From assembly GCA_036172245.1 (NCBI GenBank), contig JAYWIR010000111.1:62001-126000 (forward strand): a DNA stretch of 64,000 bases, read 5' to 3'. Positions 17,901 to 48,679 of this stretch are shown here, one piece after another; the stretch's first letter is position 1; every line of letters begins with the position of its first letter. Under the pieces are notes generated by a model, which did not search any database, had not been told where the DNA came from, and saw nothing but the letters and a program-made list of their open reading frames with translations. Made by a program: the position numbers and the translations under genes. Source of the DNA: Raillietiella orientalis. Lineage: Eukaryota.

Positions 17901-20123
17901 GGGTAACCGGCTGCAGAACTCGCGGACCAATCTTTTCAGATCGTCCCAGTACACGAGCTCTCCAACGGCAAAGGTCTGGAGATGCTGGCGGAGGTGCTCC
18001 GCAGCCACTGGATTTCTCAACCAGTCGGCCGGCAACCTCCAGACGTGCGTCGAAGGGCCCTTGCCAGGAGGGAGTAGCTCAAACTCCAGCCTGTAGTGGT
18101 CGGAAAGCTTGGACGGCTCGGGACCTCTTCGACACACCGGGCAATGCAGTTGATCGTCGAGGAACAGATGGTCCGGCCAAGCACGCATCCCGGGATCGTC
18201 GGCCAGCAAATTCGAGGCGTCCACCGACGCGCACATCTCGTTCACCAGCCGTTTCTCCCGGCGACTGTGAGACTCCTCCGATAGCGCGTGGACGTTGAAG
18301 TCCCCGGCTTCGAGGTGAGCCACGTCGGGGCCGGAGTTGCTGAGACAGCGGTCGCGCAGCCTCTCGAAAAACTCCAGTTTCTCGGTGTGACGCGCGGAGC
18401 CGCTTGGCGCGTACACGTTCGTGACGACAAGGTTGATCGATTCGGACCACTTGAGAACAAGTTGGCCCACACGACCTTCCTTGTCGAAACAAACGCTCCG
18501 CACTGCACTTGCCACACTGCGCTGGACAAGGAATGCGACTCCGCAGGTATTCTGAGAGCCTGACATCCAATGGAGCGTCCCGCCTGCGCAAACTTGCAGA
18601 TGGGCCGCTTGCTGCTCGGAGAGTGCGTGAATCTCCTTCAGCATGGCCAGATCGATGTCGCGCAAGACGTTGGCAACCAATCGCCTCTTCTCGTTGTCCT
18701 GCAGCCCGTTGACCTTCCAACAGGCCACTCGGACGCGACGGGAAGAAGCGAGACCGCTTATTGCTGCTACGGACATGGAGGTGCGTTCCTCGCCCCGTCC
18801 GGCGAGGCATCCGCCGGGAGCACGGCGGATGACGTAGCGCAAGCGCTTCCTGTCCTCGCCGAGCCGCTCACGGCCGGCTCGGTCGAGTCGAGGACCATTG
18901 CCTATGGCTCCGAGGAGCATCGGGAACCGTTCCCGACATCAGGCTCTTGCCTGGCAAGTTTTAGCTTGCGCGCAGCCCTGGCCTTTACCGGGGCTTGAAG
19001 AGCCTTAGCGCTGCCCCCGGACTATTCCTCGGAGTCCAAATTCCGCGCGCGTGCCGCGCGTTTCGTCTGCCTCTTTTTTTGCTGGCAGCCCGGAGCTGGT
19101 CCAGCACTCTTAGAGGGTGCCTTCGTCGCCGATCCCCCTTCCTGGGTCATGGCATCGGCGGCTCTTCTCTCGCAGCGGGTGTTTGCGACGGCGCGCCCGG
19201 CGGCAGCAGTGGCTTTTCCTTGCGCCTTCCTTGGCGTGTGGGGCTGCCTCTTCAGCCCGCCTACCTTTCTGATCGGGAAGTGGGAAGGATCGCGCGGTTT
19301 GCTCTCCTTCTTTTCCCGACGAAGGTCCAGGCATCATCACCGCCTTCCACTTTGCCTCGGTTGGGCGCGAGGGCTTCCAAGATCCTTCCCAACCTTTCCA
19401 ATGCCTCGGATACGGCGATGGAAGCCAGTGTCTCCTTCGTCACGTCTGCCTTCTGCACCTCCTTACAGGAAGGTGTGAGCAGAGTGGCGGGATTCTCGTG
19501 GGTTGCGCGAGGCTTTTCAGCCTTTGCTGGCATTCGGCCCGCCGTGGCCGGCTTTCCTGTCGCGGGCAAAGGGGCGCGCGACCCCTTTCTCGACGCTACG
19601 GCGGACTTCCCGGGCGTGCCACCGCTATTTTACTATGTAGCGAGAGCGGACGCAAGCGGCGGTTTTGCAGTCTGCCCCAGGTTTTTTCCAGACTGCTTTG
19701 CCCGGGGCTTGTTTTTAGCAGCTTGGAGAAGCTTTTTGCCCTTTTGTGCGGGCATTTGAGAAGCATTGCTCCCAAACACGCCCGCGCAATCGGACTTTGT
19801 GCTTGTCCGCTGCGAAACCTCGTTCGCGCCGGATTTCTTCCCCGAAGACGGAGCGGATGGAGTCGGCGCGAACGGCGATGTTGCAAGGAGGTTACTTGTC
19901 CTTCTCTTTAGTTTTAGATCGGCGCACTCCTTAATCAAGTTACTGAGCAGCTTACAGTATCGGCAACTGCGTGTTGGGCACTTCCATGGACGGTGACCCT
20001 TCTTCCCGCAGTTGTCGGAAGCTGGGGTTTGCCCGGCAAACCGAAGATAGACGACAAAGTCACCGAGGAGGATCTGCGGAAGCATGAGCTTCCGATCGTC
20101 CATAGTGACGCGCGCCGTCGCGA
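14975..20123 (-). mobile_element. Family E element (nearly complete ORF2, 3' part of ORF1)
   Basis: 3' hairpin terminus at 14975-15004. ORF2 motifs are CWKVNG, TNVYAP, AGDFN, SDH, DLRKEFD and RQSDSLSP, with C-terminal CERC..HLLLDC. Confidence 0.9.
15200..18776 (-). pseudogene. Family E ORF2 (APE endonuclease-reverse transcriptase)
   Basis: ORF pieces 17733-18920, 17289-17672, 16767-17198, 16024-16758, 15481-16011 and 15200-15535 join into one EN-RT-CCHC protein with frameshifts and stops. Confidence 0.88.
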
Positions 20124-23068
20124 TTCACACCCGCATGTGCCGGGGCATTTATTTCATTGAAATAAAATTACATAGAAATGTCGCGTGGCGAACCCTAAGG
20201 TACACCACTCCAAAACATTTTGCTGGTTACCGGCTCCATGCCGGAGAGGTCCTTCCGATGCGCGGAGATGGAAAATAAAGAAAAACAAAAAGAAACAAAA
20301 AGTTCAAATGTGGGGGGGAACAAATGTTGTAGGGGTGGGAGGGCAGGGAAGGGAAGACGGTGCGCTTGGAAAGGTCCTCTAGATCCTACTCAGGATCCGC
20401 ACAAGCTGAGTCCTTTCAGCACCCAAGTGGCGCCACTTGCGTACACTGCGCGCGGAAAGGCGAGTCCAGTGTAAGGCGTTGCCGGTTGGCTGACGCCTTC
20501 TTCTGGTGGCGTTCCAAGCCGCCACTATTCCTCTGATGCAACAGAGGACTGCTACACTAGCCAACAGGGACAAGGCGTCACCACAGAAGAGGCGCATTAA
20601 AACGTCCTTTGGGCCGCATCCGCGCAAGTACAGGATCGCCGCGAGACGATCACACAAAGGGCGGAGGGCGCTACACTCAAGGAGAAGGTGGGGAATGTTT
20701 CTTTTTCCCCAGTCCGGTCACAATTAGGATCCACAGACCCCCGGGTTTTGTGGTGCAGGCGTGCTATGAATGAAAATCCCCTGAGAACCACAAGAAACGC
20801 CACATCCTGCCATTTCAGGGGGAGGGATGCACTGTTCCAGGACGCTGTGGGCCACTTTATCTCTTTCGGAGATAGTCCGAGTAGCTCGCCCCAGCGTCGA
20901 ATTCCGTTGAGCGAAACACTCGGCGTCGCAGCGTCAGCTAGCTGCCGAGATGTCCACGCCTTTATCGATTGTGTCCTGCCGCCTATAGTGCAGGACACGG
21001 TCCATTTCCCCTGCTCGCTACTGTCCCTGGCATTCACAAAGAAGGGCAGCACTGGGGCGAGGGGCGTTATCAAGGCCCCCAGAAGCTTGTCGTGGGACTG
21101 CACGATCTCCTGCAGCTTCCTGCGGGCGTGCCTTCTCATACAAGTGTTCCTTGTGCCAGCCGGAACGTGGATCTTTACCCAGGTGGAGACTGACTCGTAC
21201 AACCAGGCGGAGTAGTTCCCTGGGAGGCAGGAGATCCAGGCGTTCTCCCGAACAGCAACGAAGATGCGTCGCAGCATAGAGCCACAGTATGGTCTTCTGC
21301 AGACGCGTGCAGATGGAAACGACAAACGTCCGCCGATTCCGCAGGCTCGTTGAGCTAGCAGGCGTGCTGGAACGCACCAAGTCGTGTCCCACAATTCGGC
21401 CGCGAGGGCGAGAGTCCTGAATCCAAGTTGCAGTTCCATGCGCTCCAGCGTAAGTACGCCAAGTCCACCGTCCTTACGTGGAGCGCACAAGTCTTTGAGC
21501 CTCACACGGGACCTCCCTTTGCCCCAAAGACTGTCCTCAGAAGGCCCGCTGCTCGTTTCCGAATAAAATAAGGAAAGGGGCAAAGAAAAAGTAGGGGGCG
21601 AAGGAGGGGAACCGCAAGCGCGTTCCACACCGCGGCCCGTTCCGGGAAGTAAAACCCTCCTTGCAGGAACGGACCGATCGCCGTATCGACTTTTTGGAGG
21701 CAGCTGTACCACGCTTCCGCAGGGGAAAAGTCCCCCGACGGCACACCGAGGTACTTAATGCAGCTCACCGTGAGGATCCCCAGACGGACCCAGTCCTGCT
21801 GGCCTGCCCACGTCGCTCCAACTGGCAACACTGACGACTTCGCCCTGTTAAGCTGTAATCAGGCCCCACGGCTAAGCAGGTCGAAGAAATCGCCGAACGC
21901 CTTTGCCGGGGTGGACATAGGTAAGAGGAGAAGAAGATCGTCGACATAGGTTGCTACGGCTGGCGTACCGGGGCACGAGCTCGGCAAGGGGGCCAAAGTC
22001 ACCTTGTACGCTCTCAGCACCAACACAGCGTAGGTGCTAAAAAGCAGGGAGCTGAGTCTGTCGCCCTGCCTTATGCCCCGCCGCACCGGCACGCCATACA
22101 CCTTTTGTCTAGTAAAAGTAATCGAGATTATCGCAATCCGCCAGCAAGAGCGCAGGTAAGTAATCAAGGAGGGAGGGAAGCCCATGCGACCCAGCAGCTC
22201 CAAGAGGAGTTCCTGGTCAACACAGTCGAATGCCTTATGGAGGTTTACTGCGATCGCTAGGGCCCCTTTCCCGCATGAGGGTCCTTACCCTGTCCCAGTT
22301 TCGGCCTTAAAGTAGGGTTGCAAATTTTCCCTTTCCCTTCGTTCTTACTCCGCTGCGCGTGCATCCATGTGCTCGCGAAGATGAGGTTGTCCTCCATACT
22401 TCGCCCGGCAACAGCGTAAGTGTGCTCTTGGCTAATTATGGAATTGGACAGCTGCCCCAATCGCGACGCTCACAGCCCGGCAACCAACTTGGCGTCCGTG
22501 TTCACAATCGTGATCGGACGCCAGTTGCAAAGTTTCCTGAGGTCTCCTCCCTTCGGGAGGAGCCTCACCCTGGCTGACCGAAACGAGGCGGGAACATCGC
22601 CTTCGTCTCGGATTCGCCTTGTCAACTAGAGCACCAGTTGATACAGCTCTTCCGCGAAACTCTGAAAGAACTCCGCAAGAAAGCCGTCATCCCCTGCCGA
22701 CTTACGCCTCTTGAGCCTTTTGATACCGGCAAAAATATCAACGGTCGTGAAAGGCTCATCTAGGTTTTCTCTCTCCTCCTCCTCTATCGCCATGGAACCA
22801 CTCATGAGCAATCGCCGCGAGGCGTCTTGTTCGGATGGTGTTTTGGCGTAAACGGAGGAATAAAAACACCGCACGAGATTGCGTACCGCTGACGGGGACG
22901 AACGTTCCCGGACCAGGTCATTCAGCATGCTGGCTGACCCGGATTGCCAGGCTTGACGATCAGCTGCGGCGCGGTATTCGGCCAGGCGACGGACATTGGG
23001 GTTCCTCTCGTGAAGACGCGCGTGCAAATACGCGCGTTCTTTGCGAGCCCCGTCGCCGAATCCCTTGG
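20124..23068 (-). mobile_element. Family C element, 3' half (RT, C-terminus, 3'UTR); host of the A array
   Basis: 3' terminus AATAAA-TGCCCCGG..GCGGGTG at 20124-20153. ORF2 has RQGDRLS and PAVATYVDD, and is cut at PKGFGDG by A1. Confidence 0.88.
23054..23068 (+). repeat. 15-bp target-site duplication of family A (CGCCGAATCCCTTGG), copy 1
   Basis: Same 15-mer at 34634-34648 and, with one mismatch, at 40291-40305. Each copy lies immediately before an A 5' end. Confidence 0.9.
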
Positions 23069-23159
23069 CGAGTAGACGTGTGTTTCCCTCGCTCCCGAGT
23101 GAGTCGACAGGAAGCGGTTTTTTCTATTGTTGTTTGGTGTGGAACATCGTTGGTGTCCG

Positions 23160-24914
23160 ATGGCAGCGATGCCTGAGGACACCACGATGAATATAGGTGT
23201 GGGGGAGGCTTGCCCACCCCCACAGCCTACAGAATCAGGGGCGTCCGCCCCGGAATCGCCCTCGCCGCTCAAGGCGAGGAGCTGGAGCGCCATGGTGGCC
23301 GCGCCGAGCGCGGAAACCATGGCCGAGATGGCGGCCTACCGGGCAGCTGGGTAAAAGCCCAGCTTGGTTTACCAGGTAGGCAATCTCTTTGACGGGCGAA
23401 CTGCACGCGCTTTTTCGAAAGCGCTGCAGAACGCCAACGTGTTAGAAAAGGACCTTGACGGTCTATCCGTGCTAAGCGGGGGTCAGCGCGTTGAGGTTGT
23501 CTGCAAGGACATCACCTTGGCGCAAAGCTTGTTAACCACCCCGCTGAACGTGGACGGACGCAAGATCCTACCAGTCACGATGGACCGCTCCGTAGTGGTC
23601 CATCTGACAGGGATCACCAGCCGCATGACGCGGTCTGCGGTTGGTGATCAGTTAAGAAAGCACGGGGATGTTCCCGCGCTTTGGCCAAAGGCCACAATCT
23701 TCGATGGCTACGATAGCCTTTTCGGAGGGCAGGCCGCCGCGCGCGTGACGGTGAACGAGAGTGGGCTTCCCCACAAACTAGAGGTCAATGGCGAAGTCGT
23801 AGACCTCTGGTACGTGGGGAAACCCTGCTTTTGTGGCTACTGCAATGCAGTAGGACACTTGCGCAAGCGGTGCCCGAACATTGTGTGCCACTTATGCGGG
23901 GAGAAGGGCCACGTACGCCGCGTATGCCCTAAACGCCCCACTCCGGTGCCGCCTGCTGCAAAAAAAGCACAGGCAAAACGCAGTAAACTGGTCGAAAGAC
24001 CAAAAAGAGATACTGGCCGGCAGCAGCCGCTAGCCCCTGTTCCTCCCACACAGGCGTCGGAAGAAAAACCCTCCGAAGACGCAGGAGTCCAAGACGGCTG
24101 GCAGCTGGTCAAGGCCAGGAAGGAGAAAAAGGTGCACCCCGCGGAACCCGCGAAAGCGGTAAAAAAGACAGCCGGCAAGGCGAAAAAACCTGGGCCGCGC
24201 TCTAAGACCATGCGGGAATGTACGGTAGCACTGGAGCGCATAGCCGTTCCCGAGATTGCCACCCGGGGCGACGAGCCTTCCCTCGCCGTGTCCGCCGCGC
24301 CCGAGGTTCGCGACGACGAACCCTCTGTTTACACAGAGGGTGAGCCGCGCGACGCGCCGGTCGACACTGCGGACGCCGCGTTCGCAAAGGCGGCGGAGGA
24401 GCTCGCGGCCACGCTGGCGGAGCGTGAGAACCCCTCACGCAAGGCCGTGCGAAGGCCGGCTCCCGCGAAAAAGGCCCCCACAGGTTAGTCGGACCTGGGG
24501 GCCGGAAGTGCATCCTCCTCCTCGGAGGCACCCCCCAGGAAGTCGGGACGCAAGTCCCAGAAACCCAGGAGGCGCCTCCCCTCCACCAGCGAGGAGGAGA
24601 AGCAGGAAGGTAGCGGTAGCGTGGGAATCCCGGAGGGGGAACTCCCACGCGCGGAAGCCGTCGAGCCGGCCACCCCCATGGAGGAGGGTGAGCAGGGGGG
24701 CGAAGTCCTCCCTGCAGTCGCCGAGCCTGAACAGCCCGCCCCCATGGAGGAGGGCCAACAGGTAGGCGCCACCCCACTTAAGGGTGACCCCCTCGACGCG
24801 CCGTTACCCATGGAGGAGGGGGACCAGGTGCACGCAGCGCCTGACCCTCCTCCTCCACCTAGCGTCCCGCCCCAACAGGTGGCGGACGCCGCATCGCCAT
24901 CTTCCCAGGAATAA
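23160..24914 (+). pseudogene. A1 ORF1, zinc-knuckle nucleic-acid-binding protein (~584 codons, two premature stops)
   Basis: One reading frame with stops at 23352-23354 and 24486-24488. Knuckles CGYCNAVGHLRKRC and CHLCGEKGHVRRVC. Confidence 0.9.
24671..24830 (+). repeat. Three degenerate PMEEG(E/Q/D)Q peptide repeats in the A ORF1 C-terminus
   Basis: CCCATGGAGGAGGG recurs at a spacing of ~66-69 nt. Also seen in A0, A2, A3 and D. Confidence 0.8.
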
Positions 24915-25380
24915 CACCTGGGCTCGCCAGTCGCCGTCGGATTCGCGCCGCCTGGTGGAACGTCAACGGGCTGCGCGACGACGGTAACAGGCGAGATACG
25001 GCCGACACCCTGCGTGAGCTCGACCTGGCCCTGCTGCAGGAGATCCACGTGATCACCGCGGCAGACGCCCAAGAGATCGAGACGATCGCGGGGGTCGGCT
25101 GTATTGGCGGTGCGGCCTCTGCAACACCTGCGGGGTCGCGTTCTTCGTGAAGCCGGCCATCGACGCGGCCGTGAAGGGCGTGCGCTTCGATGACGACGGT
25201 CGGGTCGGTCAGATGATTCTCAGCTGGTCCGACTCGATCGAATTGATCGTCACGAATGTGTACGCCCCCAGCGGTAAACAGGGATACAGCGACCGTACCA
25301 GGCTGCTGGATTCCCTGAAGCGCGACTGGCTGGCGGACACGAACGTGCGGAAGGCTCACCTGATAGCGGGAGATTTCAAT
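24911..25380 (+). pseudogene. A1 ORF2, N-terminal endonuclease up to GDFN
   Basis: WNVNG, LLQEIH, TNVYAP and LIAGDFN, with a 1-nt frameshift near 25095. Confidence 0.9.
25373..25380 (+). repeat. 8-bp target-site duplication of B1 (ATTTCAAT), left copy
   Basis: Repeated at 31291-31298; single copy at the empty site in A2 (36945-36952). Confidence 0.92.
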
Positions 25381-25459
25381 CGAGTGCGGACGTGTTTTTC
25401 TTCGCTCTCGTCTCCGTGCTTTCATCCGCTTCATCTTGGCGTCGTACATTTTGACGACG

Positions 25460-27383
25460 ATGTCGTCCCAACTTGAAGCTACTGAAGTTGGAGGAACAGC
25501 ATCCGGATCTGCAATCGCGGAACCGACGGCCGCCTCCACTTCGTCTTTCTCGCCAATGGAGAGAAGTTTTGCTGACGTTGCTGCCACAGCAGCCGTCAAA
25601 GGGAAACCACTCGACGAGTCGGAGTTGCGGGCATACGTAGCCCAAGGCTATAGACCTGCTCTCCGATATAAGGTGAGTGGTTTTCTTTCTGCGCGCGACG
25701 GGAATCCGTTCAACGATGAACTGACCCGTGTTGGCGTGCGGGAGGAGGACCTTCTCGCCATTATGCCCGTAAAAGACATGGGCTATTTCAAGGTGCGTTG
25801 CAAAGACGCTGCACTTGTGCAACGCTTGCTGCGCACCCCGTTGTCGATCCGTGGCCAGAAGGTCTTCCCGGCCGCCATGGACGACTTATTTTTGGTGGAG
25901 ATTTTCGACATCGAGTCGGAAATCTCCGATACTGATATACGGAACGCGTTGGCGAAATTCGCCACGGTCCATGCGCTGTGGAGGGTGCGTAGCAACCTCA
26001 AGGACTTCCCGTCCATACACAGCGGAGTCGCTGGAGTCCGGCTTACAATGCCGGACCGCTGTCTGCTGCCCACCAAACTACAGGTGAAAGACACGGTCGT
26101 TCACCTGTGGTTCGTGGGCAAAGTAAAAACGTGCGAGCAATGCGGGAAGGAGGGGCATTGTTTGGATAAATGCCCCTCTGGAAAATGCCGTTATTGCAAA
26201 CTATCCGGGCACCAATTGAAAAATTGCCCGGATCTTTTGCGAAAAAAGGCAGCCGCGGAGCTCCATTTTAAAAAACAAAGCGCGGATAAAAAGAAAAAAT
26301 CTGCGAAAACCCTGGAGACCCCACGGCAGAAATTCGGTAAAAACGCGAGGCGGAATGTCGCCCCAAAGCAGCAGGAAACCTCGCACGCGAAGCCCTGCGC
26401 ACCCCCTCTCGCGGCAGGGGAGCCGCAAAAGAAAGGGTGCGGGGAATCCGGGGCAATGGTAAGTCACCCTAGGCGCAATAGCTGTCCTTCCCAAGCACGC
26501 CCGGCTCTCTCGGAGTTCGAGCAACCGGCGGGGACGCCAATGGACAACGGCGGTAAGGACACTTCCAGTACCGTCAGATCCATCCCTTCACCTCCTGCAG
26601 TGGCTGAGAAGCCCAAATCGGGTAAGAAGGTTTGTGCCGTGTCGACTTCGAAAGTCGGCAAAAAAAAAATCCGCGTCGCGATCCAACACCGCGAAAGCGG
26701 AGAAAAATCTCACGCCGTCGCAGTCGGAGAGCAAGCTCTGGACTGGCGCGGATGCCATGCCAACGGAGGGATTAAAAGCCCTTCCGAAAGCAGCGTCCAT
26801 GACGAGCGTGTCGGAGTCATCGAAAGTGCTCCCGTCCAAAGACGCGGATGGCTTCAAAGATGGCAATGGAGCACAATCTCCATTTACGGCGCCACGCAAA
26901 GTGAGGAACCGTAATGAAGTAAAGAAGACTTCAGCAAAGGTCCCTCGGGCAACTGCGCGTGAGCACGCTGAAAACGCGCGCGCAGGGAAAGCAGCCGTCA
27001 CCAAAAGCGATGCTCTGGAGACGGAAAAAGACAACAGGACAGCTGTCAATCCAGCAGAACCTGTCACTGCTTCGCGGAAGGCCGAAACCCGATCGAACAT
27101 GCGCCGGTCGGACTCCGAAATGGATGCCGTTCCGATCACCGAGACGAGGACAACTCGTTCGAAAGCGTGTGCGTGCCGATCAAAAGTAGGCAGCCAGGCA
27201 ACGCTCGCCGCGAAGCAACGCGAAGTCTCCACGAAACCCGACGGGGTTCAGCCTGGCGTGGAGGCATTACATGCATGCAGCACGACAGAGGACGGTGGCG
27301 ACCGTCCCCTCCAGCCAGTCGTGCTGCTCGCCGTCTGCTCGCCGGATAAAGAGAGCAAAAAGCCGCCACCTTCCCAGCAGTAA
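25460..27383 (+). pseudogene. B1 ORF1 (two zinc knuckles), frameshift in the A-run at ~26660
   Basis: Knuckles CEQCGKEGHCLDKC and CRYCKLSGHQLKNC. ORFs 25436-26914 and 26634-27383 join. Confidence 0.9.
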
Positions 27384-30300
27384 TGCGGGGAATCGCGTCT
27401 TCTCGTCGTCTGTCCGTAACGTGTTGGAACGTGAACGGACTGCAGAACGACGAGAAGAGGCGATTAGTAGCCAACGCCCTGCGCCCCTTCGACCTCGCGC
27501 TCCTGCAGGAGATTCACGTAATCTCCGACAAGCAGACAGCCGAAATGGAGCAGCGCGCAGGCAGAACGCTATATTGGCGGTGCGGCGGCGCACACACGTG
27601 CGGCGTCGCGTTCCTCATCAGAGAAAAAATGGCGGAAGCGATGCATAGTGTTCGTTTCGATGACAACGGACGGATAGGCCAACTTGTCATTAAGTGATCC
27701 GAATCCATCGTTCTCGTTGTTACAAACGTCTACGCGCCGAGTGGCTCTCGCTACCTTGAAGAAGGAGTAGCTTTCTTTGGTGAGGTGCAGAGCCACTAGC
27801 TCAACAACTCCGCCTTCCCAGTGGCGCACATCGTCGCTGGGGACTTCAACGTCCGCCTGCTCTCCGACCCTTGGAGCCGCCCGAGGGAGCGCGCGCTGCC
27901 CATCGAGATGTGCGCGTCCGTGCACGCCGCCAACTTGATGGTCAGCGAACCTGGAATGGAAAGATCGCTCGATCACGTTTTCCTCGATGAAAACCTGCAT
28001 TCGCGTGTGGGTAGGAGAGGAAGATTGTTGACTGAGCTTTCTGACCACCACAGATTGGAGTTTGAGATCCTTCCGCCAAGCAGGGGACCTCCGTTGCAAA
28101 GCTGGAGGATGCAAGCGGATTGGCTTAGCCAACCGGAGGCTGCGGAGCATCTACGTGGATACCTCCGGGGCTTTGCCATTCAAGAACTTGCGGACTGGGA
28201 CGATCTCAAAAGATCTGTCCGCGAGTTCTGTTGCCAATTCCCCTTGCACCGGCTTCCACGCGGTTTCGGAGAGGGCGTGGCCAACAGTAGAGACTTTCTG
28301 CAGGCCTGCACGTTTTCGAGACGCGCGGATGTCGGGCGTCTCGCAGAGTACAAGGCGAGGGCCGAGCGCCAGGTCTGGCAGTCCGGAGCAGCATGCCTGT
28401 TGGACGACAAGGGCCAGGAATGTTCGGCCCCAGCCGAAGTACGCCGCATTGTGTGACGCTACTACTCCTCGCTCTACGCGGAATCCCCGACGGAGGATAT
28501 TCTTTCTGAGATACTCCTGTCTCAGGATGCTCGTGTTGTCGGCGAGGAGGAACGCGAACGTCTCGACGAGCCCTTCACGGCGGATGAATTTTCGTCCGCC
28601 ATCGCTGGGCTGAAGAGACGAAAGGCGCCAGGCGAGGATGGGCTGCCTGCAGAGTTTTATCAGTGCTTTGCAGTGGAGCTCATTCCCTTGATGCTGAAAC
28701 TCGCGACGCTGATGAGTGAATCCGGGAATGTCCCGGATTCCTTCCGCTCAGCGAAGGTGCGTCTCCTGCCGAAAGGCGGAGACTTGCGTCAACTTAACAA
28801 CTGGCGTCCGATCACCTTGGTGAACTCGGACGTCAAGTTGTTTTCCAAGCTGTGGGTCGCGCGGTTAGGAAGAATCGCGGAATCTGTGGTGAGCCCGGAA
28901 CAAACCTACGCGGTTCCGGGACGATCCATGGAGGCGAACATCCTTTTCGCGCGTACATGGATGCAGCTGCAGGACGTTGTGGCGCAGCAAAGCCAGGCTG
29001 CTGCGAAAGTCACTGCCGCAGGCAAAAAGAACAGGCGCCGACGGCAGGAGGGAACGCCAGGTGCCTTGGCGGTCGCGGTCGATCTCCACAAGGCGTTCGA
29101 CTGCGTAAACCAGAAGCTGCTTTTGGAGCTTATGGAACGCCTTGGGGTCCCGGCGCAACTCCTGCTGTATTTGCGCGCGTGCTGGCGCCACGCGCTAACC
29201 TGCATCACTTTTAGCGGCTGCCGCGTGTATGGTATTCCCGTTCGTAGGGGCATCCGACAGGGCGACAGCTTCAGCCCGTTGCTCTTCAGCATCTTCTTTG
29301 AGTTGGTGCTAAGAGCATACAGGCTGACGCTGTCTCACTTGCCAAGCTCCTGCCCGGGAACGCCTGCCGTGGCCGCCTACGCTGATGACCTGCTTCTTCT
29401 GCTCCCCATGTCCACCCCGGCGTCCAGTGTCGAGGATTTCTTCGACCTGATTCGTCGGTGAGCGGGCGTGAGCGTGAACAGAGAGAAGAGCGTGGTCGTT
29501 CCTGTGGGTACGTCGTGGGAGGGGCAGTCCGACTGGATCCGCCTGGGGATCCCCACGGGCGGGTACTTTAAGGACCTTGGCGTTCCGTTGGGCGCTTTCG
29601 GCGCAGCCGAAGCGTGGGCGGACTGTCTTCAGAAAGCAGAGTTGGCCATCAGCCCGTTCTTTAACGGCAAGTTTACCTTGCAGGAACGGGCGACTATTTG
29701 AAACACCTTTGTGGCCCCCCTCCTCCGTCCCCTGTTTTTTGTTTTGGTCCCTCCCTATGCGGCGAAACAGCGGGCTGAGCGCCTGCTCAGGAACGCACTC
29801 TGGGGTCCGGCGAGATCCAAAATCCGCCTTAAAGATTTGTCAGCTTCGCGTCGGGATGCTGGTTTGAGTATCCTGACAATGGAGCGACTCGGACTGCAGG
29901 TGCAGTTCCGACTGCTGGCACTGTGTGCCCAGCTATGGACATCCCCCCTGTGTGTGCCAGCTCGCATTCTCCTGCGGAGATGCGCCGGCAGCGGAGGATT
30001 TCTCTCGCTTTTGCCGGGCACTCAATACAGGAAGCAAGGTTTCGGGTTTCCATTGCGGCAGTTGACCGCACTTCTGGAAGCACACTCTTGGATCTCCTGC
30101 CGCCCAATGAACTTTGAAGCTTGGCGGCAGGAGTCTGTTGAATCCTGGGTGGCGTTCCAAGGAATACGCCCTGAAGATCTTCGCCCCCTGCGCCAATTTT
30201 TTCCACGATCCTTGGAAGAAGTACTGCAGGACGAGGTGAAGTTTTCTACCCTGGCTGCCACGCCTCTTGCCGCAGCGCTGTCTGCCCTCAGGGCAAGAAA

Positions 30301-30977
30301 CGACAGTTACCAAACGGCGAGGTGGGAGGTTTCCTGCACGATAGCGGGAAGAACCAAACTCCTTGGCACCTGGAAGACAAGTGAGTTGGCGGACGCCTCC
30401 ACTCCTCGTTTAAACTGCAATGGAACTCCTCCGGTGGGCAGAAGAACTTGCTGTCACCCCCGAAGAACTTGTAGTCCCTCCACAGTGTATTGACGGTTCG
30501 CTGCTCTCCCTTGCTTGAAAACAAGCCATGGTGCTTTTCGTTCACTGGTGTTTTCATTGCAACGAGCGTTGGCATCCTGACTCCTTGGGACTTGCGTCTG
30601 CGAACTGATTTCGTAGCGGATCGACGGAGTCGATTCTGCACCTACTTCTGGACTGCGGTGTCCTACAAGGACTGTGGCGTAGGCTGGCAACAGCACTAAG
30701 GCATCCCGTGGACACCGCAAGAGACTTGCTGCGACGATTCTTCACGCCGAGCGGGCTGTCACTAAGCTCACGAATTGCAACCATCGGTTGCATACGCGCG
30801 TTAGTTTCCGTCCGCCAGGCGTTGGTAATCAACGGACAGCACCAAGAGGTAATCAGCAAAGCATCCTTCTACATGGGAGCATCCGCTAGATGGCCTCATT
30901 TGACAGAGGAGACAAAGAGGAATCTCGCCGCAATACAACGCCGGTTTACACACCCTCATCAGCGGCCAACCCGGTGA
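27383..30977 (+). pseudogene. B1 ORF2 (APE endonuclease-RT-CCHC), several stops
   Basis: CWNVNG, AGDFN, LDHVF, SDH, KAPGEDG, NWRPITL, DLHKAFD, RQGD and AYADD. Confidence 0.92.
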
Positions 30978-31298
30978 TCATTGCCCTACCCTCCATAAAC
31001 TAAATTTGTATTTTCTTTTTACACCCGCGTCCCCATAGGCTCCGGAACATTTGAGGTGCTCATCGTTTAAATCCCCGTGAGTACGGAGCCTAACCAAAAA
31101 CCCTTTTCCCTTCCCTCCAGTTTTTGATTTTTGTTTGTTTCCCCTCATTCCCCCCACGCTGCGAGCGGTTTGTTTACCAGGCCTGCGTGGCGGTAATTTT
31201 TCTATGTTCTCTGTCGTTCTGTTGGTTGGGGACATTGTCCCTGACCAGTTTATTATTATTAATAAACGCCCCGGCGTGACCGGGTGATAAATTTCAAT

Positions 31299-34200
31299 CT
31301 CCGTCTGCTAACAGGTGAGCCAGAAACACAAGAGAACGCGATGAACGAGTTGTGCGCCGCCATGCGTGCGCGCAACTTGTTCGCGGGTGAGAGGGGGATG
31401 GTCCGCAGCATCGACCACGTCTTCCTCGACGCTGACCTGTGTTCACGGGTCGGCAAACGGGGGAGGGTTGCGTCGACGTTGTCGGACCATTCCCGGTTAA
31501 TTTTCGATATGCGGCCTCGTGACAAGGGACCGCCATCCAGGGATTGGCGTCTGCCGGGGGACTGGACGCGACTCTCAGGTGCGAAGGAATACCTTCGCGA
31601 ATACCTGAGAGGTGTCACGCTCCGGAATCTCCAGGACTGGGACCTTTTTAAGGAATCGGTCCGCGAGTTCTGTGAGCAGTTCCCCCTGGATCGCCTGCAC
31701 CCCGGATTCGGCGAGGGTGCTCGCAACCATCGGGCCTATTTACAGGCTCGTAGGTACGAGAGAACCCCTAATGTCCGTCGCCTGGCCGAGTACCGCGCCG
31801 GGGCCGAACGCCAAGCCTGGCAATCCGGGTCGGCCAGCTTGCTGGACGACCAGGGCCGGGAATGTTCGTCCCCGGCGTCGGTACGGCATCTCGTGCGGAG
31901 TTTCTATTCCTCCCTTTACGACAGGCAGCCCCCGGATCGAAACGCCTCTCGGCGCTTGCTTCCGGATGGCGCCCCGGCAATAGGGGAGGAGGAGATGGAA
32001 AGCCTCGACGAGCCTTTTACCACCGGCGAAATTCTCGCCGGTATCAAAAGGCTCAAGAGGCGTAAAGCTCCAGGGGAAGACGGCTTGCCCGCGGAGTTCT
32101 TTCAGAGCTTCGCGGAAGAGCTGGCACCCCTGCTGCTTACGTTGATCAGGCTGATCCGAGACGAAGGCGATGTTCCCGCCTCGTTTCGGTCAGCCAGAGT
32201 GAGGCTCCTGCCGAAAGGGGGAGACCTCAGGGATTTAAAGAACTGGCGTCCGATCACGATCGTGAATACGGACGCCAAGTTGATCGCAGGGCTATGGGCT
32301 TCGCGTCTGGGGCAGGTGGCAGAATCCGTAATTAGCCCGGAGCAGACTTATGCTGTTCCCGGGCGAAGTATGGATGCCAACCTCTTCTTTGCAAGCACAT
32401 GGGTGCACCTGCAGAGAAGAGAGAAGAAAGGGATAGGGAAAGTCGGCAACCCCACATTGGGGCCGCCAGCCGGGCTGGGAAGGGAACCCCGGGCGGGGAA
32501 GGGGGCCCTAGCGCTCGCAGTCGATCTCCACAAGGCGTTCGACTGTGTAGACCAGGAACTTCTCTTGGAGCTCCTGGGTCGCATGGGCTTTCCACCCTCC
32601 CTGATTTCCTACCTGCGCTCTTGCTGGCGGAACGCGATAATTACCGTCTCTTTCAGCGGTCAAAAGGTGTATGGCGTGCCGGTGCGGCGGGGCATAAGGC
32701 AGGGAGATAGCCTCAGCCCCCTGCTCTTCAGCACCTACTTTGAGTTGGTGCTGAGAGCGTACAGGGTGACTTTGGCCCCATTGCCGAGCTCGTGCCCCGG
32801 CACGCCCGCCGTAGCAGCGTACGCCGACGATCTTCTGCTTTTGTTGCCAATGTCCACCCCGGCAAAGGCGGTCGGAGACTTCTTCGATCTGCTCAGCCGC
32901 GGGACCGGACTGCAGGTTAACAGGGCGAAGTCGTCGGTTGTGCCAATAGGTGCGGCGTGGGCAGGGCAGCAGGACTGTGTCCGTCTGGGGATCCCCACGG
33001 CGAGGTGCTTCAAGTACCTTGGTGTGCCGTTGGGGGACTACTCCCCTGCGGAAGCGTGGTCCAGCTGCCTCCAAAAAGTCGAGACGGCGATCTGCCCGTT
33101 CCTGGAAGGCAAGTTTCACTTGCCGGAACGGGCCGCGGTTTGGAACGCCTTCGCGGCCCCCATCCTCCGCCCCTTGCTTTTTGTTTGCCCCCCCACCGTG
33201 GAATCCAAGAAGACGACGAAGGACCTCCTCCGTATCGCCCTTTGGGGCAAGGGGAGGCCCCGAGTCCCACTGAAGGACTTGTGCGCTCCGCGTCGGGACG
33301 GCGGTCTTGGCCTCCTGACGCTGGAGCGCGTGGAAAAGCAGCTGCGGTGGCGAACCCTCGCCATCGCAGCGAAGATGTGGAGCACCCCTTGGTGCACTCC
33401 GGCCCGCCTCCTGGCCAGCCGTGTGTCCCGGTGCGATGGACTCGCGTCTTTTCTTCTGAGCCGTGACCGGAAGATGCGAAGATGCGGCCTACTGCTCGGG
33501 CGCATGGCAACATTGGCCAAGGAGAACAGCTGGTAGGTTTGCTGCCCCGCCAACTCCCCCGCCTGGCTGGAGGAGAATATCGGAACGTGGGCAGTAGTCA
33601 ACCAGAGAAGCCACGAAACGTGGAATCGTCTCCGATGCAGCCCCTACGCCCGCTGCACGCTGCGGAATCTCCTGGAGAGTTCAGCAAGATGCACGTGGGC
33701 AGAGACGACCTGCCTAGCTACGGCGCTACCCTTTTTAAGGAGGGCACTTCACAGCACCCGGACGCCAAGGTGGCAAGTCTCCTGCTGCATCGAGGGACGG
33801 GAGAAGTTGATCAGCGGCTGGACAACAGGAGAACTGGCCGACGCCTCGACCCCGAGCGTCCAGCCGCGAGGATTATTAAGATGGGGCGAGCTGCTCGCCA
33901 TCCCCAGGGATGAGCTGAAGGGGCCCCCGGTGATGAAGGAATCCAGGATCCTGCCCCTCAAGTGGCAAGAGTCGGCGTTGCTTTTGTTGCACTGGGGTCT
34001 ACCCTGCAACGCGCGCCGCTTCCACTGGACGAGGGGAGCTGTGGATCCTGCGTGTGCCAGGTGCGGGGAGCGGGAGTCGCTTCCACACCTTATTGTGGAT
34101 TGTGCTGCCCTCCGACCCCTTTGGGAACGGTTCGGGACGACCCTCGGGCTCCCTACGGGCAGCACCCCCAGAGACGTTCTTCGGCCCCTCTTCGTGAAGG

Positions 34201-34427
34201 ACGCACTGCAGCCAGCCGCAGCCATCGCAGCCTTGTGCTGCGTCCGTGGCATCGTGGGGGCATGGAGCGACGCCAACAACGAAGGAGTGGGTCCACAGGC
34301 GAGGGATGTCATCCCGTATGCCCAACGCTTCTTGCGAAGAGCTGCCGGATGGCCCCAACTGGGGAATATGCAGGCTGACCTCGAGGGCTTCGTTCGACGG
34401 ATGGGCCCTCCCCACAGCGACCAGTGA
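31299..34427 (+). pseudogene. A1 ORF2 remainder (C-terminal endonuclease, RT, CCHC)
   Basis: Open from 31299 to a stop at 33534-33536, then continues to 34427. Motifs IDHVF, SDH, DLHKAFD, RQGDSLSP, AYADD and CARCGERESLPHLIVDC. Confidence 0.93.
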
Positions 34428-34602
34428 TCCCGTCCCTGCCCTCCAACTTCTTTTTGTTTGTTTCTTTTTTATTTTACTTTTTGTCTCATCCCCATCCCCC
34501 TTCGCTGTCGGGGAGTGCCACGCCGGGCTGCGTCCCGGTGTCCCGACAGGTCCTGTGTTTACGGCCGTGGTGGGGCCTTGTACCACGCATGTAAAGTTTA
34601 TC

Positions 34603-34633
34603 AATAAACGCCCCGGGCGTACCCGGGTGGCAA
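34603..34633 (+). other. Conserved 3' terminus: AATAAA, GC hairpin, terminal AA
   Basis: AATAAA CGCCCCGG GCGTAC CCGGGTG GCAA. Equivalents occur at 31261, 40260, 48642 and 55388 (+) and at 11235, 14975 and 20124 (-). Confidence 0.85.
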
Positions 34634-34739
34634 CGCCGAATCCCTTGGCGAGTGGACGTGTTTTTCCTTCGCTCCCGAGTGAGTCGACAGGAAGCGGTTT
34701 TTTCTATTGTTGTTTGGTGTGGAACATCGTTGGTGTCCG

Positions 34740-36485
34740 ATGGCAGCAATGCCTGAGTACACCACGATGGAGGTAGGTGTGAGGGAGGCTTGCCCACCCC
34801 CACAGCCTAGAGAATCAGGGGCGTCCGCCCCGGAATCGCCCTCGCCGCCCAAGGCGAGGAGCTGGAGCGCCATGGTGGCCTCGCCGAACGCGGAAACCGT
34901 GGACGAGATGGCGGCTTACCGGGCAGCTGGGTACAAGCCCAGCTTGGTGTATCAGGTAGGCCCCTTATTTGACGGAAAAACGGCACGCGCGTTTTCGAAA
35001 GCGCTGCAAAACGCCGGAGTTAGAGAACAAGATCTTGACGGTTTGTCCGTTCTCAGCGGAGGTCAGCGAGTCGAGGTGGTGTGCAAGGAGATCACCTTGG
35101 CTCAGACTCTGATCACCAACCCGTTGAACGTCGACGGCCGCAAGATCTTGCCGGTGACGATGGACCGCTCCGTGGTGGTCCATCTCACTGGAATAACTAG
35201 CCGTATGATTCGCTCTGCGGTAGCACAAGAACTTCGGAAGTTCGGCGAGGTGCACGCTCTGTGGCCTAAGCCAACAATCTTTGAAGGCTTCAATAGCCAT
35301 TTCGGAGGTCAGGCTGCAGCGCGGGTAACCGTGAGTAAGGATTGTGGGCTTCCCCACAAGCTGGAGGTCGCGCAAGGGAGCGTGGACCTCTGGTACGTGG
35401 GAAAGCTCCGGTATTGCGGCTACTGCGATACCGTAGGACACCTTCGCAAGAGGTGTCCTAACATCCAATGCTACATGTGCGGGGAGAAGGGCCACGTTCG
35501 ACGTGTGTGCCCAAAACGCCCCACCCCGGTTCCTCCTGCAGCGAAAAAGGCGCAGGGGAAACGCGCACTAAAGGTCGCAAAACCTATGGCGGACGATGGC
35601 CGGCTGAAACTGCCAGATCCTCAACCTCCAAAAGAAAAGACGGAGGGTAAACCTTCCCAAGAGGCGGAAGGTGAAGAGGGCTGGCAACTTGTAGCAGCCA
35701 GAAAAGAGAAAAAATCTCCTTTAAAGGAGAAGAAAGAGAAGCCGGCCGGTAAGGCAAAAAAATCCGGGCCGCGTTCGAAAACTTTACGCGAGTGCACGGT
35801 GGCACTGGAACGTATCATCGTTCCGGAAGATGCCACCCGGGTCGACGGGCCTCCCCTCGCCGTTTTCGTCGCGCCCGAAGTTCGCGACTGCGAACCCTCT
35901 GTGCAAACAGAGGGTGCGCCGCGCGACGCGTCGGTCGACACCGAGGACGCCGCGCTCGCAAAGGTGGCGGAGGAGCTCGCGGCCACGCTGGCGGAGCGTG
36001 AGAACCCCTCGCGCAAGGCCGTGCGAAGGCCGGCACCCGAGAAAAAGGCCCCCACAGGTGAGTCGGACCTGGGGGCCGGAAGTGCATCCTCCTCCTCGGA
36101 GGCACCCCTCAAGAAGTCAGGACGCAAGTCCTAGAAACCCAGGAGGCGCCTCCCTTCCACCAGTGTGGAGAAGCAGGAAGGTAGCGGTAGCGTGGGAATC
36201 CCGGAGGGGGAACTCCCACGCTCGGAAGCCGTCGAGCCGGCCACCCCCATGGAGGAGGGTGAGCAGGGGGGCGAAGTCCTCCCTGCAGTCACCGAGCCTG
36301 AACAGCCCGCCCCCTTGGAGGAGGGCCAACAGGAAGGCGCGACCCCACCTAAGGGTGACCCGCTCGAGGCGCCGTTACCCATGGAAGAGGGGGACCAGGT
36401 GCACGCAGCGCCTGACCCTCCTCCTCCACCTAGCGTCCCGCACCAACAGGTGGCGGACGCCGCATCGCCATCTTCCCAGGAATAA
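34740..36485 (+). pseudogene. A2 ORF1 (one premature stop at 36132-36134)
   Basis: ORFs 34707-36134 and 36165-36485 are in the same frame; two CCHC knuckles. Confidence 0.9.
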
Positions 36486-39400
36486 CACCTGCGCTCGCCA
36501 ATCGCCGTCGGATTCGCGCCGCGTGTTGGAACGTCAACGGGCTGCGCGACGACGGTAACAGGCGAGATACGGCCTACACCCTGCGTGAGCTTGACCTGGC
36601 CCTGCTGCAGGAGATCCACGTGATCACCGCAGCAGACGCCCAGGAGATCGAGACGATCACGGGGGGTCGGTTGTATTGGCGGTGCGGCCACCGCAAGACC
36701 TGCGGGGTCGCGTTCTTCGTGAAGCCGGCCATCGACGCGGCCGTGAAGGGCGTGCGCTTCGATGACGACGGTCGGGTCGGTCAGCTGATTCTCAGTTGGT
36801 CCTAGTCGATCGAATTGATCGTCACGAATGTGTACGCTCCCAGCGGTAAACAGGGATACAGCGACCGTACCAGGCTGCTGGATTCCCTGAGGCGCGATTG
36901 GCTGACGGACACGAACGTGGGGAAGGCTCTCCTGATAGCGGGAGATTTCAATCTCCGTCTGCTAACAGGTGAGCCAGAAACACAAGAGAACGCGATGAAC
37001 GAGTTGTGCGCCGCCATGCGTGCGCGCAACTTGTTCGCGGGAGAGAGGGGAATGGTCCGCAGCATCGACCACGTCTTCCTGGACGCTGACCTGTGTTCAC
37101 GGGTCGGCAAACGGGGGAGGGTTGTGTCGACGTTGTCGGACCATTCCCGGTTAATTTCCGAGATGCGGCCTCGCGACATAGGACCGCCATCCAGGGATTG
37201 GCGTCTGCCGGGGGACCGGACGCGACTCTCAGGAGCGAAGGAACACCTTCGCGAATCTCTGAGAGGCGTAACGCTCCGGAATCTCCAGGACTGGGACCTT
37301 TTTAGGAATCGGTCCGCGAGTTCTGTGAGCAGTTCCCCCTGGATAGCCTGCCCCCCGGATTCGGCGAGGGTGCTCGCAACCATCGGGCCTATTTACAGGC
37401 TCGTAGGTACGAGAGAACCCCTAATGTCCGTCGCCTGGCCGAGTTCCGCGCCGGGGCCGAACGCCAAGCCTGGCAATCCGGGTCGGCTAGCTTGCTGGAC
37501 GACCAGGGCCGGGAATGATCGTCGCCAGCGTCCGTACGGCATCTCGTGCGGAGTTTCTATTCCTCCCTTTACGCCAGGGAGCCCCCGGATCGGAACGACT
37601 CTCGGTGCTTGCTTCCGGATGGTTCCCCGGCAATAAGGGAGGAGGAGATGGAAAGCCTCGACGAGCCTTTTACCACCGGCGAAATTCTTGCCGGTATCAA
37701 AAGGCTCAAGAGGCGTAAAGCTCCAGGGGAAGACGGCTTGCCCGCGGAGTTCTTTCAGAGCTTCGCGGAAGAGCTGGCACCCCTGCTGCTTAAGTTGATC
37801 AGGCTGATCCGAGACGAAGGCGATGTTCCCGCCTCGTTTCGGTCAGCCAGAGTGAGGCTCCTTCCGAAAGGGGGAGACCTCAGGGATTTAAAGAACTGGC
37901 GTCCGATCACGATCGTGAATACGGACGCCAAGTTGATCGCAGGGCTATGGGCTTCGCGTCTGTGGCAGGTGGCAGAATCCGTAATTAGCCCGGAGCAGAC
38001 TTATGCTGTTCCCGGGCGAAGTATGGATGCCAACCTCTTCTTCGCAAGCACATGGGTGCACCTGCAGAGAAGAGAAAAGAAAGGGATAGGGAAAGTCGGC
38101 AACCCCACATTGGGGCCGCCAGCAGTGCTGGGAAGGGACACCCGGGCAGGGAAGGGGGCCCTAGCGCTCGCAGTCGATCTCCACAAGGCGTTCGACTGTG
38201 TAGACCAGGAACTGCTCTTGGAGCTCCTGTGTCGCATGTTCTTTCCACCCTCCCTGATTTCCTACCTGCGCTCTTGCTGGCGGAATGCGATAATTACCGT
38301 TTCTTTCAGCGGTCAAAAGGTGTATGCCGTGCCGGTGCGGCGGGGCATAATGCAGGGAGATAGCCTTAACCCCCTGCTCTTCAGCACCTACTTTGAGTTG
38401 GTGCTGAGAGCGTACAGGGTGACTTTGGCCCCATTTCCGAGCTCGTGCCCCGGCACGCCCGCCGCAGCAGCGTACGCCAACGATCTTCTGCTTTTGTTGC
38501 CAATGTCCACCCCGGCATAGGCGGTCAGAGACTTCTTCGATCTGCTCAGCCGCGGGACCGGAATGCAGGTTAACAGGGCGAAGTCGTCGGTTGTGCCAAT
38601 AGGTGCGGCGTGGGCAGGGCAGCAGGACTGGGTCCGTCTTGGGATCCCCACGGCGAGGTGCTTCAAGTACCTTGGTGTGCCGTGGAGGGACTACTCCCCT
38701 GCGGAAGCGTGGTCCAGCTGCCTCCAAAAAGTCGAGACGGCGCTCGGCCCGTTCCTGGAAGGCAAGTTTCACTTGCCGGAACGGGCCGCGGTTTGGAACG
38801 CCTTCGCGGCCCCCATTCTCGGCCCCTTGCTTTTTGTTTGCACCCCCACCGTGGAATCCAAGAAGAGGATGAAGGAACTCCTCCGTATCGCCCTTTGGGG
38901 CAAGGGGAGGATCCGAGTCCCACTGAAGGACTTGTGCGCTCCGCATCGGGACGGCGGTCTTGGCCCCCTGACGCTGGAGAGCGTAGGGAAGCAGCTGTGG
39001 TGGCGAACCCTCGCCATCGCATTGAAGATGTGGAGCACCCCTTGGTGCACTCCGGCCCGCCTCCTGGCCAGCCGTGTGTCCCGGTGCGATGGACTCGTGT
39101 CTTTTCTTCTTAGCCGTGGCCGGAAGATGCGAAGATGCGGCCTACTGCTCGGGCGCATGGCAACATTGGCCAAGGAGAACAGCTGGATGGTTTGCTGTCC
39201 CGCCAACTACCCCGCCTGGCTGGAGGAGAATATTGGAACGTGGGCAGTGGTTAACCAGAGAGGCCACGAGACGTGGAATCGTCTCCGATGCAGCCCCTAC
39301 GCCCGCTGCACGCTGCGGAATCTCCTGGAGAGTCCAGCAAGATGCACGTGAGCGGAGACGATCTGCTTAACTACGGCGCTGCCCTTTCTCAGGAGGGCAC

Positions 39401-40080: not shown

Positions 40081-40305
40081 TCCCTTCCCTGCCCCTCAAC
40101 CTCATTTGTTTGTTTGCTTTTTTGTTCTTATTTTTGTTTTTTCCCCATCCCCTTTCGCTGCCGGGGAGTGCCACGGCGGGCTGCGTCCCGGCGTCGCGTT
40201 AGGTCCCGTGCATGAGGCCGTGAGAAGGGGCCTGGTACCGCAATTGTAGAGTTTTTATAAATAAACGCCCCGGGCGTACCCGGGTGGCAACGTCGAATCC
40301 CTTGG

Positions 40306-42762: not shown

Positions 42763-42841
42763 CGAGTGCGGACGTGTTTTTCTTCGCTCTCGTCTCCGTG
42801 CTTTCATCCGCTTCATCTTGGCGTCGTACATTTTGACGACG

Positions 42842-48358: not shown

Positions 48359-48679
48359 TCATTGCCCTACCCTCCATAAACTAATTTTGTATTTTCTTTT
48401 TACACCCGCGTCCCCATAGGCTCCGGAACATTTGAGGTGCTCATCGTTTAAATCCCCGTGAGTACGGAGCCTAACCAAAAACCCTTTTCCCTTCCCTCCA
48501 GTTTTTGATTTTTGTTTGTTTCCCCTCATTCCCCCCACGCTGCGAGCGGTTTGTTTACCAGGCCTGCGTGCCGGTAATTTTTCTATGTTCTCTGTCGTTC
48601 TGTTGGTTGGGGACATTGTCCCTCACCAGTTTATTATTATTAATAAACGCCCCGGCGTGACCGGGTGATAAATTTCAAT

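Follow-up and report, generated by a model that had tools for sequence, protein, structure and literature searches.

Evidence for site-specific insertion of one LINE family into the endonuclease codons of a sister family in a 64-kb window of Raillietiella orientalis

We analyzed 64,000 nucleotides of Raillietiella orientalis DNA (assembly GCA_036172245.1, contig JAYWIR010000111.1, positions 62,001 to 126,000 of the forward strand), a stretch called the window below; all results come from this one window on a single contig. The window is a Russian-doll nest of long interspersed nuclear elements (LINEs), in which members of a family called B lie in the endonuclease codons of members of a sister family called A. 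Comparison of the window with itself revealed many related copies on both strands, 65 to 96% identical, and no terminal repeats of the long terminal repeat (LTR) type within a copy. A and B have the same build, namely, an open reading frame (ORF) 1 with two putative CCHC-type knuckles and an ORF2 with a nuclease of the apurinic/apyrimidinic endonuclease (APE) type (Exo_endo_phos) and a reverse transcriptase (RT; RVT_1). They share about 67% nucleotide identity (57% protein identity) in ORF2 and about 34% protein identity in ORF1. Copies A2 (34634-40290, a host of about 5.65 kb) and B1 (25381-31290) served as references for the comparisons, and the positions of the features are collected in Table 1.

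All four B-type 5' ends in the window lie at one same host base, in sense orientation. The host letters right before B are of the GGAGAYTTCART type in A1, A3, and D. The A1/B1 junction at 25380/25381 reads ...GCGGGAGATTTCAAT on the host side and CGAGTGCGGACG on the B side, and the A3/B2 junction at 42762/42763 is letter-identical; in both, the B start CGAGTG(C/G)GGACGTGT comes directly after GGAGATTTCAAT. At the D/B' junction (9518/9519), ...TCGGGAGACTTCAGT is followed by CGAGTGGGGACG, the host side ending in GGAGACTTCAGT. The fourth 5' end is that of B3 at 48679/48680, where the B2 3' end (...GGGTGATAA) is followed by the 8-bp sequence ATTTCAAT and then by the B start. The 3' end of B reads ...CCGGGTGATAA, and a flank matching the target would begin ATTTCAATCTCC. 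Of the three B 3' ends, two run into ATTTCAAT and that of B4 into ATTTCGAC. Past the second copy of ATTTCAAT, A1 continues as DFNLRLLTGEPETQE, identical to A2, in which the site is uninterrupted. The duplication could be 8 or 9 bp long, because B and the host sequence that follows the duplication both begin with C. If the events were independent and uniform, the chance that all four would share a base in a host of about 5.65 kb is approximately (1/5657)^3. Three of the four young-subfamily B copies begin at base 1.

The original prediction, made from the letters of the window, had placed B at the same nucleotide of A1, A3, and D, had described an 8-bp duplication around B1 after which A1 ORF2 resumes, and had pointed to A2 as an empty site. 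All of these coordinates hold, and B3 adds a fourth case. A sequence-specific LINE is recognized by independent copies inserted at one nucleotide with one and the same duplication, alongside an empty site; all of these occur in the window. B also has a target-sequence preference, which is typical but not defining of the Tx1 clade. Among the matches listed for the public sequencing run X1, contigs span both B1 junctions (25352-29107 and 30269-31309), and one contig jumps from 25372 to 31291, the empty form of the site. The stretch was present in one of three sequencing runs, X2 and X3 having matched low-complexity stretches only; X1 may derive from the very sample that yielded the window.

The duplication is placed symmetrically inside a 16-bp near-palindrome, GGAGATTTCAATCTCC, which codes for the G-D-F-N-L-(R) stretch of the family A nuclease. 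In a PDB search, AGDFN of the intact element E nuclease aligned with G144-D145-F146-N147 of the human L1 endonuclease (E = 1e-4), and the A2 nuclease fragment gave weak matches to L1 endonucleases only (E = 0.15-0.46). N147 of this motif is presumably catalytic too. Asp145 of the L1 endonuclease is essential for catalysis according to the accessible text of PMC8565326, in agreement with the earlier claim that GDFN holds the catalytic Asp. The N-terminal nuclease part of A3, which ends at GDFN, spans positions 3-155 of the 225 positions of the Exo_endo_phos profile. As the cut falls at about profile position 155, insertion of B splits the nuclease domain of its host, which had also been proposed.

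Ten GDFN/S-type sites were counted in the window, too few to tell which positions matter. The three that are occupied all carry GGAGAYTTCART, and one exact copy, in A2, is empty. Sites with GGGGAC or GGTGAC are empty in six of six cases (D2, the own genes of B1, B2, and E, K, and G). The GDFN codons of the B and E genes carry the variant GGGGACTTCAACGTCC, in which 4 of 16 positions depart from the target and which may confer self-immunity.

The best explanation of B is an autonomous LINE with an APE-type nuclease and an L1/Tx1-like build, given its domain order, the target-site duplication, the 5' truncation of B4, and the lack of terminal repeats in the self-comparison. RVT_1 matched B1, B2, and A1 in Pfam (E = 7e-20 to 2e-23). 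Exo_endo_phos, with a Pfam cut-off of 24.5 bits, reached 36.9 bits in E and 28.8 bits in the N-terminal part of A3; the B nuclease was identified by eye from a translation with stops (...WNVNGL...QEIH...VAGDFNVRLL). B ORF1 had no Pfam match, and two CX2CX4HX4C motifs are visible in its translation. The zf-CCHC matches in A ORF1 (18.8-19.7 bits) were slightly below the cut-off of 20.8, and a zf-RVT match in A ORF2 was weak (16.5 bits versus a cut-off of 27.5). In B1, a 79-nt leader precedes an ORF1 that is open from 25460 and has two putative CCHC knuckles, and ORF2 (nuclease and RT) is interrupted by several stops. An in-frame A-B fusion protein was considered and rejected: the A frame is closed by a stop after 31 codons of B, and B ORF1 is read in a different frame.

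All families begin with a common motif, ...GAGTG.GGACGTGT..., and share the layout of the 3' terminus: an AU-rich hairpin is followed by a GC hairpin (CCCGG...CCGGG) and then by G-N-N-A-A, and poly(A) is absent. Stem sequences vary from family to family, and these hairpins are probably the recognition element of the RT. A scan of the window with Rfam for a 5' ribozyme that might explain the exact 5' ends gave no match at the gathering score, and within 25300-25800 it returned a microRNA match at chance level only (E = 0.4).

Comparison of hosts with inserts supports the independence of the B insertions within the window. Over 990 bp of 5' host flank, A1 and A3 differ at 145 of 988 positions (14.7%), compared with 262 of 5907 (4.4%) between B1 and B2 (Fisher p = 7e-29). 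Among 176 variable ungapped sites of the flank, 132 pair filled A1 with empty A2, 31 pair A1 with A3, 10 pair A2 with A3, and 3 differ in all copies; by this measure, filled A1 is the sister of empty A2. The ORF1 regions of A1, A2, and A3 are 53-83% alike, and the A1/A3 difference nearest to the junction lies 31 bases from it (25350). Kimura two-parameter (K2P) distances are 0.29-0.34 between D and A and 0.34 between B' and B, each pair being about 27% diverged. As A1 is at a K2P distance of only 0.047 from empty A2, D with B' is not the same ancestral insertion as A1 with B1; it appears to represent a further, older event, a diverged B in a diverged host. We thus count at least four putative B insertion events at one base. 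One of them is marked by the ATTTCAAT that separates B2 from B3; in the accessible text of PMC5932611, a tandem junction that encloses a target duplication is the signature of double insertion at one site.

A single ancestral insertion of B into A, with the composite copied as DNA and its flanks later altered by gene conversion, could also be imagined. A1, A2, and A3 are head-to-tail neighbors and mosaics, with some 150-bp bins 94-100% identical and others 53-80%. A 6.9-kb BLAST alignment crosses the A/B junction (24393-31299 versus 41771-48680, 94%), and conversion tracts would naturally end at the edge of a 5.9-kb heterology. However, one insertion followed by DNA duplication would leave hosts and inserts equally diverged and would group A1 with A3; neither is seen, the host flank being three times more diverged than the insert and most variable sites pairing A1 with the empty copy. 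This scenario would require that, in at least one copy, gene conversion had exchanged the entire 2.3-kb 5' portion with its ORF1, stopping about 31 bases short of the junction. Such a history also leaves unexplained the B2-ATTTCAAT-B3 junction and the D and B' pair, whose divergence of 27% compares with only 4.5% between A1 and an empty copy. We regard it as improbable, and the host/insert comparison within the window agrees with the earlier judgment that one insertion plus duplication is unlikely.

Somewhat less probable still is a structural hot spot, a near-palindrome easily nicked or extruded and usable by any LINE of the group irrespective of B nuclease specificity. The target is indeed palindromic at 14 of 16 positions, and L1-type nucleases read DNA shape, according to the accessible portions of PMC1950540 and PMC8565326. 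Nevertheless, only B-type elements (four of four) were found at the site, in identical orientation each time, and E, C, C', D, D2, and A1 occupy other, differing sites of the same nest; as E, C, C', and D sit elsewhere, the site is not a general hot spot. Least probable is an assembly artifact in which collapsed or mis-joined repeats multiplied one real junction, since in this dense nest of 65-96% identical repeats, with abrupt breaks at 50846 and near 52568-52589, the copies nevertheless differ by 4-27% and their flanks by 5-40%, so that they are not the same reads placed twice, X1 contigs among the matches listed span both B1 junctions and the empty form, and the nest un-nests cleanly with matching duplications.

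The reading that we favor, with a probability of roughly 80%, is that B has inserted repeatedly and site-specifically, in sense orientation, into GGAGATTTCAATCTCC in the GDFN codons of A. The nicking protein, the nick positions, and any benefit to B are parts of this reading that we infer. The B nuclease would nick each strand at 5'-AAT^CTCC-3', in the context GCGGGAGATTTCAATCTCCGTC, cutting the bottom strand at the left of ATTTCAAT and the top strand 8 bp farther right; the fixed 8-bp stagger would follow if a single nuclease recognized the same half-site on both strands. The 3'-OH of the bottom strand would then prime reverse transcription, starting at the 3' end of the B RNA (...GGGUGAUAA, preceded by two short hairpins), the full-length complementary DNA would be joined precisely at CGAGTG, and fill-in would produce the 8-bp duplication. 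The A copy that is hit would lose its nuclease domain. The duplication rebuilds most of the site, and therefore a second B can land beside the first, as in B2-ATTTCAAT-B3. To call B a "hyperparasite," as the original prediction did, is an interpretation, in which constraint on the motif or harm to a competitor is used as a strategy.

Several observations weigh against site-specific insertion of B. The hosts lie in one tandem array of mosaic A copies, in which gene conversion and unequal exchange are possible. As the 3' parts of A3 and D are missing, the duplications are uncheckable for B2/B3 and for B'. None of the B copies in the window has an intact ORF2. B4 does not fit the target: its 3' flank begins ATTTCGACGGGCTG... 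and passes into AT-richer non-LINE DNA, the octamer ATTTCGAC agrees with the target at 6 of 8 positions (the first five, ATTTC, being identical), and its 5' side joins D2 at A position ~2632 through about 20 unrelated bases with no duplication. B4 may represent either priming at an off-target or degenerate site with deletion of the nest or a canonical insertion that was later rearranged. In addition, in one depth-2 contig of X1, an A-type 3' end is connected to a B-like start through 16 letters, CCCCAACTCCCTCTTT (joint 34633 -> 25380). The start may belong to a genuine B, which would add a second non-canonical flank, or the contig may record tandem copies of a further family directed to a different target. 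Searches outside the window added no further B copies: 148 pattern matches to B ORF1 among metagenome contigs yielded no case confirmed by tblastn, the shared 3'-end pattern had no match in such contigs, and B ORF1 had no match at E <= 0.001 in the protein collection.

Family A appears, from its own junctions, to be site-specific itself, landing antisense after CGCCGAATCC of a sister family ORF2, with two hosts and a tandem array in the window. A1 lies antisense in the minus-strand A-like element C, directly after CGCCGAATCC (junction 23054-23068); the copy of CGCCGAATCC at 23054-23063, just 5' of A1, belongs to C. Read in the sense direction, these 10 bp are GGA TTC GGC G and belong to the GFGE codons, which lie between the nuclease and the RT. 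Another A-like element, D2, is found at the homologous position of minus-strand C' (12880-12913). The homologous antisense sites in A1 (~31700) and A2 (37352-37366), on the minus strand, read ...CCCTCGCCGAATCC followed by GGGGGG and are empty. The A1/A2 (34634-34648) and A2/A3 (40291-40305) junctions consist of an A 3' end, CGCCGAATCC or CGTCGAATCC, and an A 5' start, the same tandem signature as in B2/B3. Family A begins CTTGGCGAGTGGACGTGT and ends ...CCCGGGTGGCAA; the 3' ends of B (...GGGTGATAA) and A (...GGGTGGCAA) both lack poly(A). A target common to all A-like elements was rejected: D lies in the RT codons (KLLAGLW) of an element H, and the 5' flank of L, a truncated element at 62159, is also a different one. 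When A ORF2 was searched against the protein collection, one close relative was found (70% identity), the rest being at most 35% identical; the best named relatives are unclassified fish proteins (26-29% identity).

The A copies are mosaics. Across 23054-25380, 34634-36952, and 40291-42762, their similarity is 92-95% over the leading 150 bp, 79-95% over the 150 bp that follow, 53-84% in ORF1, and 75-100% in the nuclease part, a pattern that suggests exchange of ORF1 modules between subfamilies.

From the outside in, the nest consists of H, D, B', C', D2, E, C, the A1-A2-A3 array, and B1 (in A1) or B2 and B3 (in A3). The whole D fragment starts near 7035 and lacks its 3' part, and B' is interrupted at about 11234 by minus-strand C'. 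E is split by C plus everything nested in C. The 12-nt CGGCTGTTTATC is found at 14968-14979 and 51932-51943, flanking the minus-strand B-like element E; the two D2 pieces are therefore parts of one element, which E and its contents have driven 37 kb apart. The fragment 52044-52568, which had been taken for a further host with an empty site, was accordingly rejected as an independent host, since it continues D2. The last 5 nt of CGGCTGTTTATC (GATAA on the minus strand) equal the 3' tail of E, and the repeat may consist of a 7-bp duplication plus 5 nt of microhomology. The insertion of C in E ORF1 and the break at 50846 are less clean than the other levels. In 50846-51300, B3 ends at 50846 against a minus-strand C fragment (nuclease start ...CWNVNGLRDDGKRRD), and a deletion has taken the 3' parts of B3 and A3 together with about 800 bp of C. 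Near B4 (52568-52589 and 55417-55440), the 3' parts of D2, B', and D and the 5' part of C' are absent, which suggests a large deletion at or after the B4 insertion. LINE sequence has a GC content of 54-62%, and the surrounding DNA at 1-4000 and 56000-60000 is at about 40-49%. The stretches outside the LINE nests, 1-4000 and 55418-59600, are GC poorer (40-49%) and have no LINE homology.

Table 1. Elements, duplications, 3' ends, and GDFN/S-type sites of the window
Feature	Position	Strand	Description
D	8950-9518	+	nuclease N-terminal part ending GGAGACTTCAGT; ~73-76% identical to A over last 530 bp
B'	9519-11234	+	old degenerate B relative; 73% identical over 880 bp; stops, internal deletion
D2 5' part	12890-14974	+	A-like; same antisense site of minus-strand C' as A1 in C
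E 3' part	14975-20123	-	B-like family, 69% nucleotide identity; 5' part at 51301-51931
C	20124-23063	-	A-like family, 78% identical; hosts A1-A2-A3 at GFGE codons; 5' fragment ~50847-51300
A1 5' part	23064-25380	+	leader, ORF1, nuclease N-terminal part to GDFN
Left duplication copy ATTTCAAT	25373-25380	+	end of A1 GGA GAT TTC AAT (GDFN) codons
B1	25381-31290	+	full-length family B LINE, 5.9 kb; 3' end ...AATAAACGCCCCGGCGTGACCGGGTGATAA, no poly(A)
Right duplication copy ATTTCAAT	31291-31298	+	A1 ORF2 continues from here
A1 3' part	31291-34633	+	rest of nuclease, RT, weak zf-RVT match, 3' hairpins; 93% identical to A2
A2	34644-40290	+	full-length family A; after A1 3' end and 10-bp CGCCGAATCC (34634-34643)
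Empty B target in A2	36941-36956	+	GGAGATTTCAATCTCC, exact, 14/16 positions palindromic
A3 5' part	40301-42762	+	after A2 3' end and CGTCGAATCC (40291-40300); nuclease open to GDFN; 3' part missing
B2	42763-48671	+	full length, 95.5% identical to B1
ATTTCAAT between B2 and B3	48672-48679	+	target duplication within tandem junction
B3	48680-50846	+	first 2166 bases of B; ends at 50846 against minus-strand C fragment
D2 continuation	51932-52568	+	carries empty site GGGGACTTTAATCTCC
B4	52589-55417	+	5'-truncated (B positions 3077-5910), 90% identical to B1 and B2
3' ends, plus strand	31246-31290, 34589-34633, 40246-40290, 48627-48671, 55373-55417	+	
3' ends, minus strand	near 15019-14975, 20166-20124, 11279-11235	-	
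A1 site			GGAGATTTCAAT; occupied by B1
A3 site			GGAGATTTCAAT; occupied by B2 and B3
D site			GGAGACTTCAGT; occupied by B'
A2 site			GGAGATTTCAATCTCC, exact target; empty
D2 site	52245-52260		GGGGACTTTAATCTCC; empty
B own gene, 2 copies	27839-27854, 45222-45237		GGGGACTTCAACGTCC; empty
E own gene	18305-18290	-	GGGGACTTCAACGTCC; empty
K site			GGTGACTTTAACCTTC; empty
G site			GGGGACATTAAC; empty

Target-specific LINEs are usually explained as sparing the host by using multicopy RNA genes, microsatellites, or telomeres. Here, a related, competing LINE appears to provide the landing site, in the codons of its catalytic motif, and this host seems to use a third family in the same way. Taken as a whole, these levels might form a chain in which each family has a nuclease adapted to a conserved coding region of one of its sister families, a tentative proposal to which we give somewhat less than even odds. 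B would be directed to the sense strand of the A GDFN codons and A to the antisense GFGE codons of C-like elements, with Russian-doll nests and tandem arrays as the outcome. B and B' would have kept their landing codons while both partners diverged by about 27%, pointing to a long co-evolution between transposon and transposon host, and synonymous variants of the site (GGGGACTTY...), in the own gene of B and in D2, would act as immunity or escape. If true genome-wide, the arrangement would offer a clean system for transposon conflict, co-evolution, and niche partitioning among sister families and a route by which LINE-only nests and arrays accumulate. It would also provide related APE-type nucleases with differing long sites, a 16-bp near-palindrome versus a 10-bp staggered site; the A/B nuclease pair could then help explain sequence reading, which is relevant to retargeting such nucleases. 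The interest would be greater if the two-level chain held genome-wide.

LINEs that live inside another mobile element are already known, and the original statement that no such case was described was overstated. "Transposons" are among the LINE targets listed in PMC4640811. According to the accessible text of PMC4494074, many Tx1-clade elements have a target preference, such as Tx1 in Tx1D, Keno in U2 genes, and Kibi and Koshi in microsatellites. The same text reports that Tx1 (Tx1L) of Xenopus laevis inserts in Tx1D, a piggyBac-type DNA transposon (citing Christensen et al. 2000), that the crocodilian Tx1-Mar lies in Mariner-N4_AMi and Tx1-9_AMi about 300 bp inside Harbinger elements, and that Tx1-8_Crp and Tx1-4_AMi lie in groups of LTR retrotransposons. 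Zepp LINEs target existing copies by nested insertion, as stated in the accessible part of PMC8226300 (citing Higashiyama et al. 1997). In the literature searched, which covered older LINE work, subscription papers, and Repbase Reports thinly, we found no account of a LINE directed to the nuclease codons of another LINE; a sister-LINE catalytic motif as target, with a second level up, was likewise not found described.

As far as the accessible text of the sources goes, Tx1L resembles B as an LINE with an APE-type nuclease and a specific landing site inside another transposable element, with composites as the result. Unlike B, it targets a non-autonomous DNA transposon rather than the coding sequence of a related LINE, and B is likened to it by build, not by clade placement. 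The crocodilian Tx1 elements also prefer a defined position in another transposon family, and SINEU-3, which depends on them, shows tandem insertions sandwiching a duplication, like B2/B3 (PMC4494074). They differ from B in their targets, which are DNA transposons or LTR elements, with no LINE or catalytic-motif target in the text described there. Zepp and ZeppL, L1 LINEs of green algae, insert like B in existing LINE copies and form nested clusters; in contrast to B, they target their own kind, and their arrays consist mostly of 5'-truncated 3' ends (PMC8226300, accessible part). B inserts are full length, at one base, in a different host family, and without poly(A), and the own-gene site GGGGACTTCAACGTCC is empty in both B copies. 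R1 and R2 of arthropod 28S ribosomal DNA, unlike B, target a host gene, and the R2 nuclease is of a different kind. In the portions of PMC5932611 and PMC1919474 that are accessible, they share with B a strict site in a multicopy target and tandem copies arising by double insertion, and their nuclease cuts both strands at defined positions, as we propose for B.

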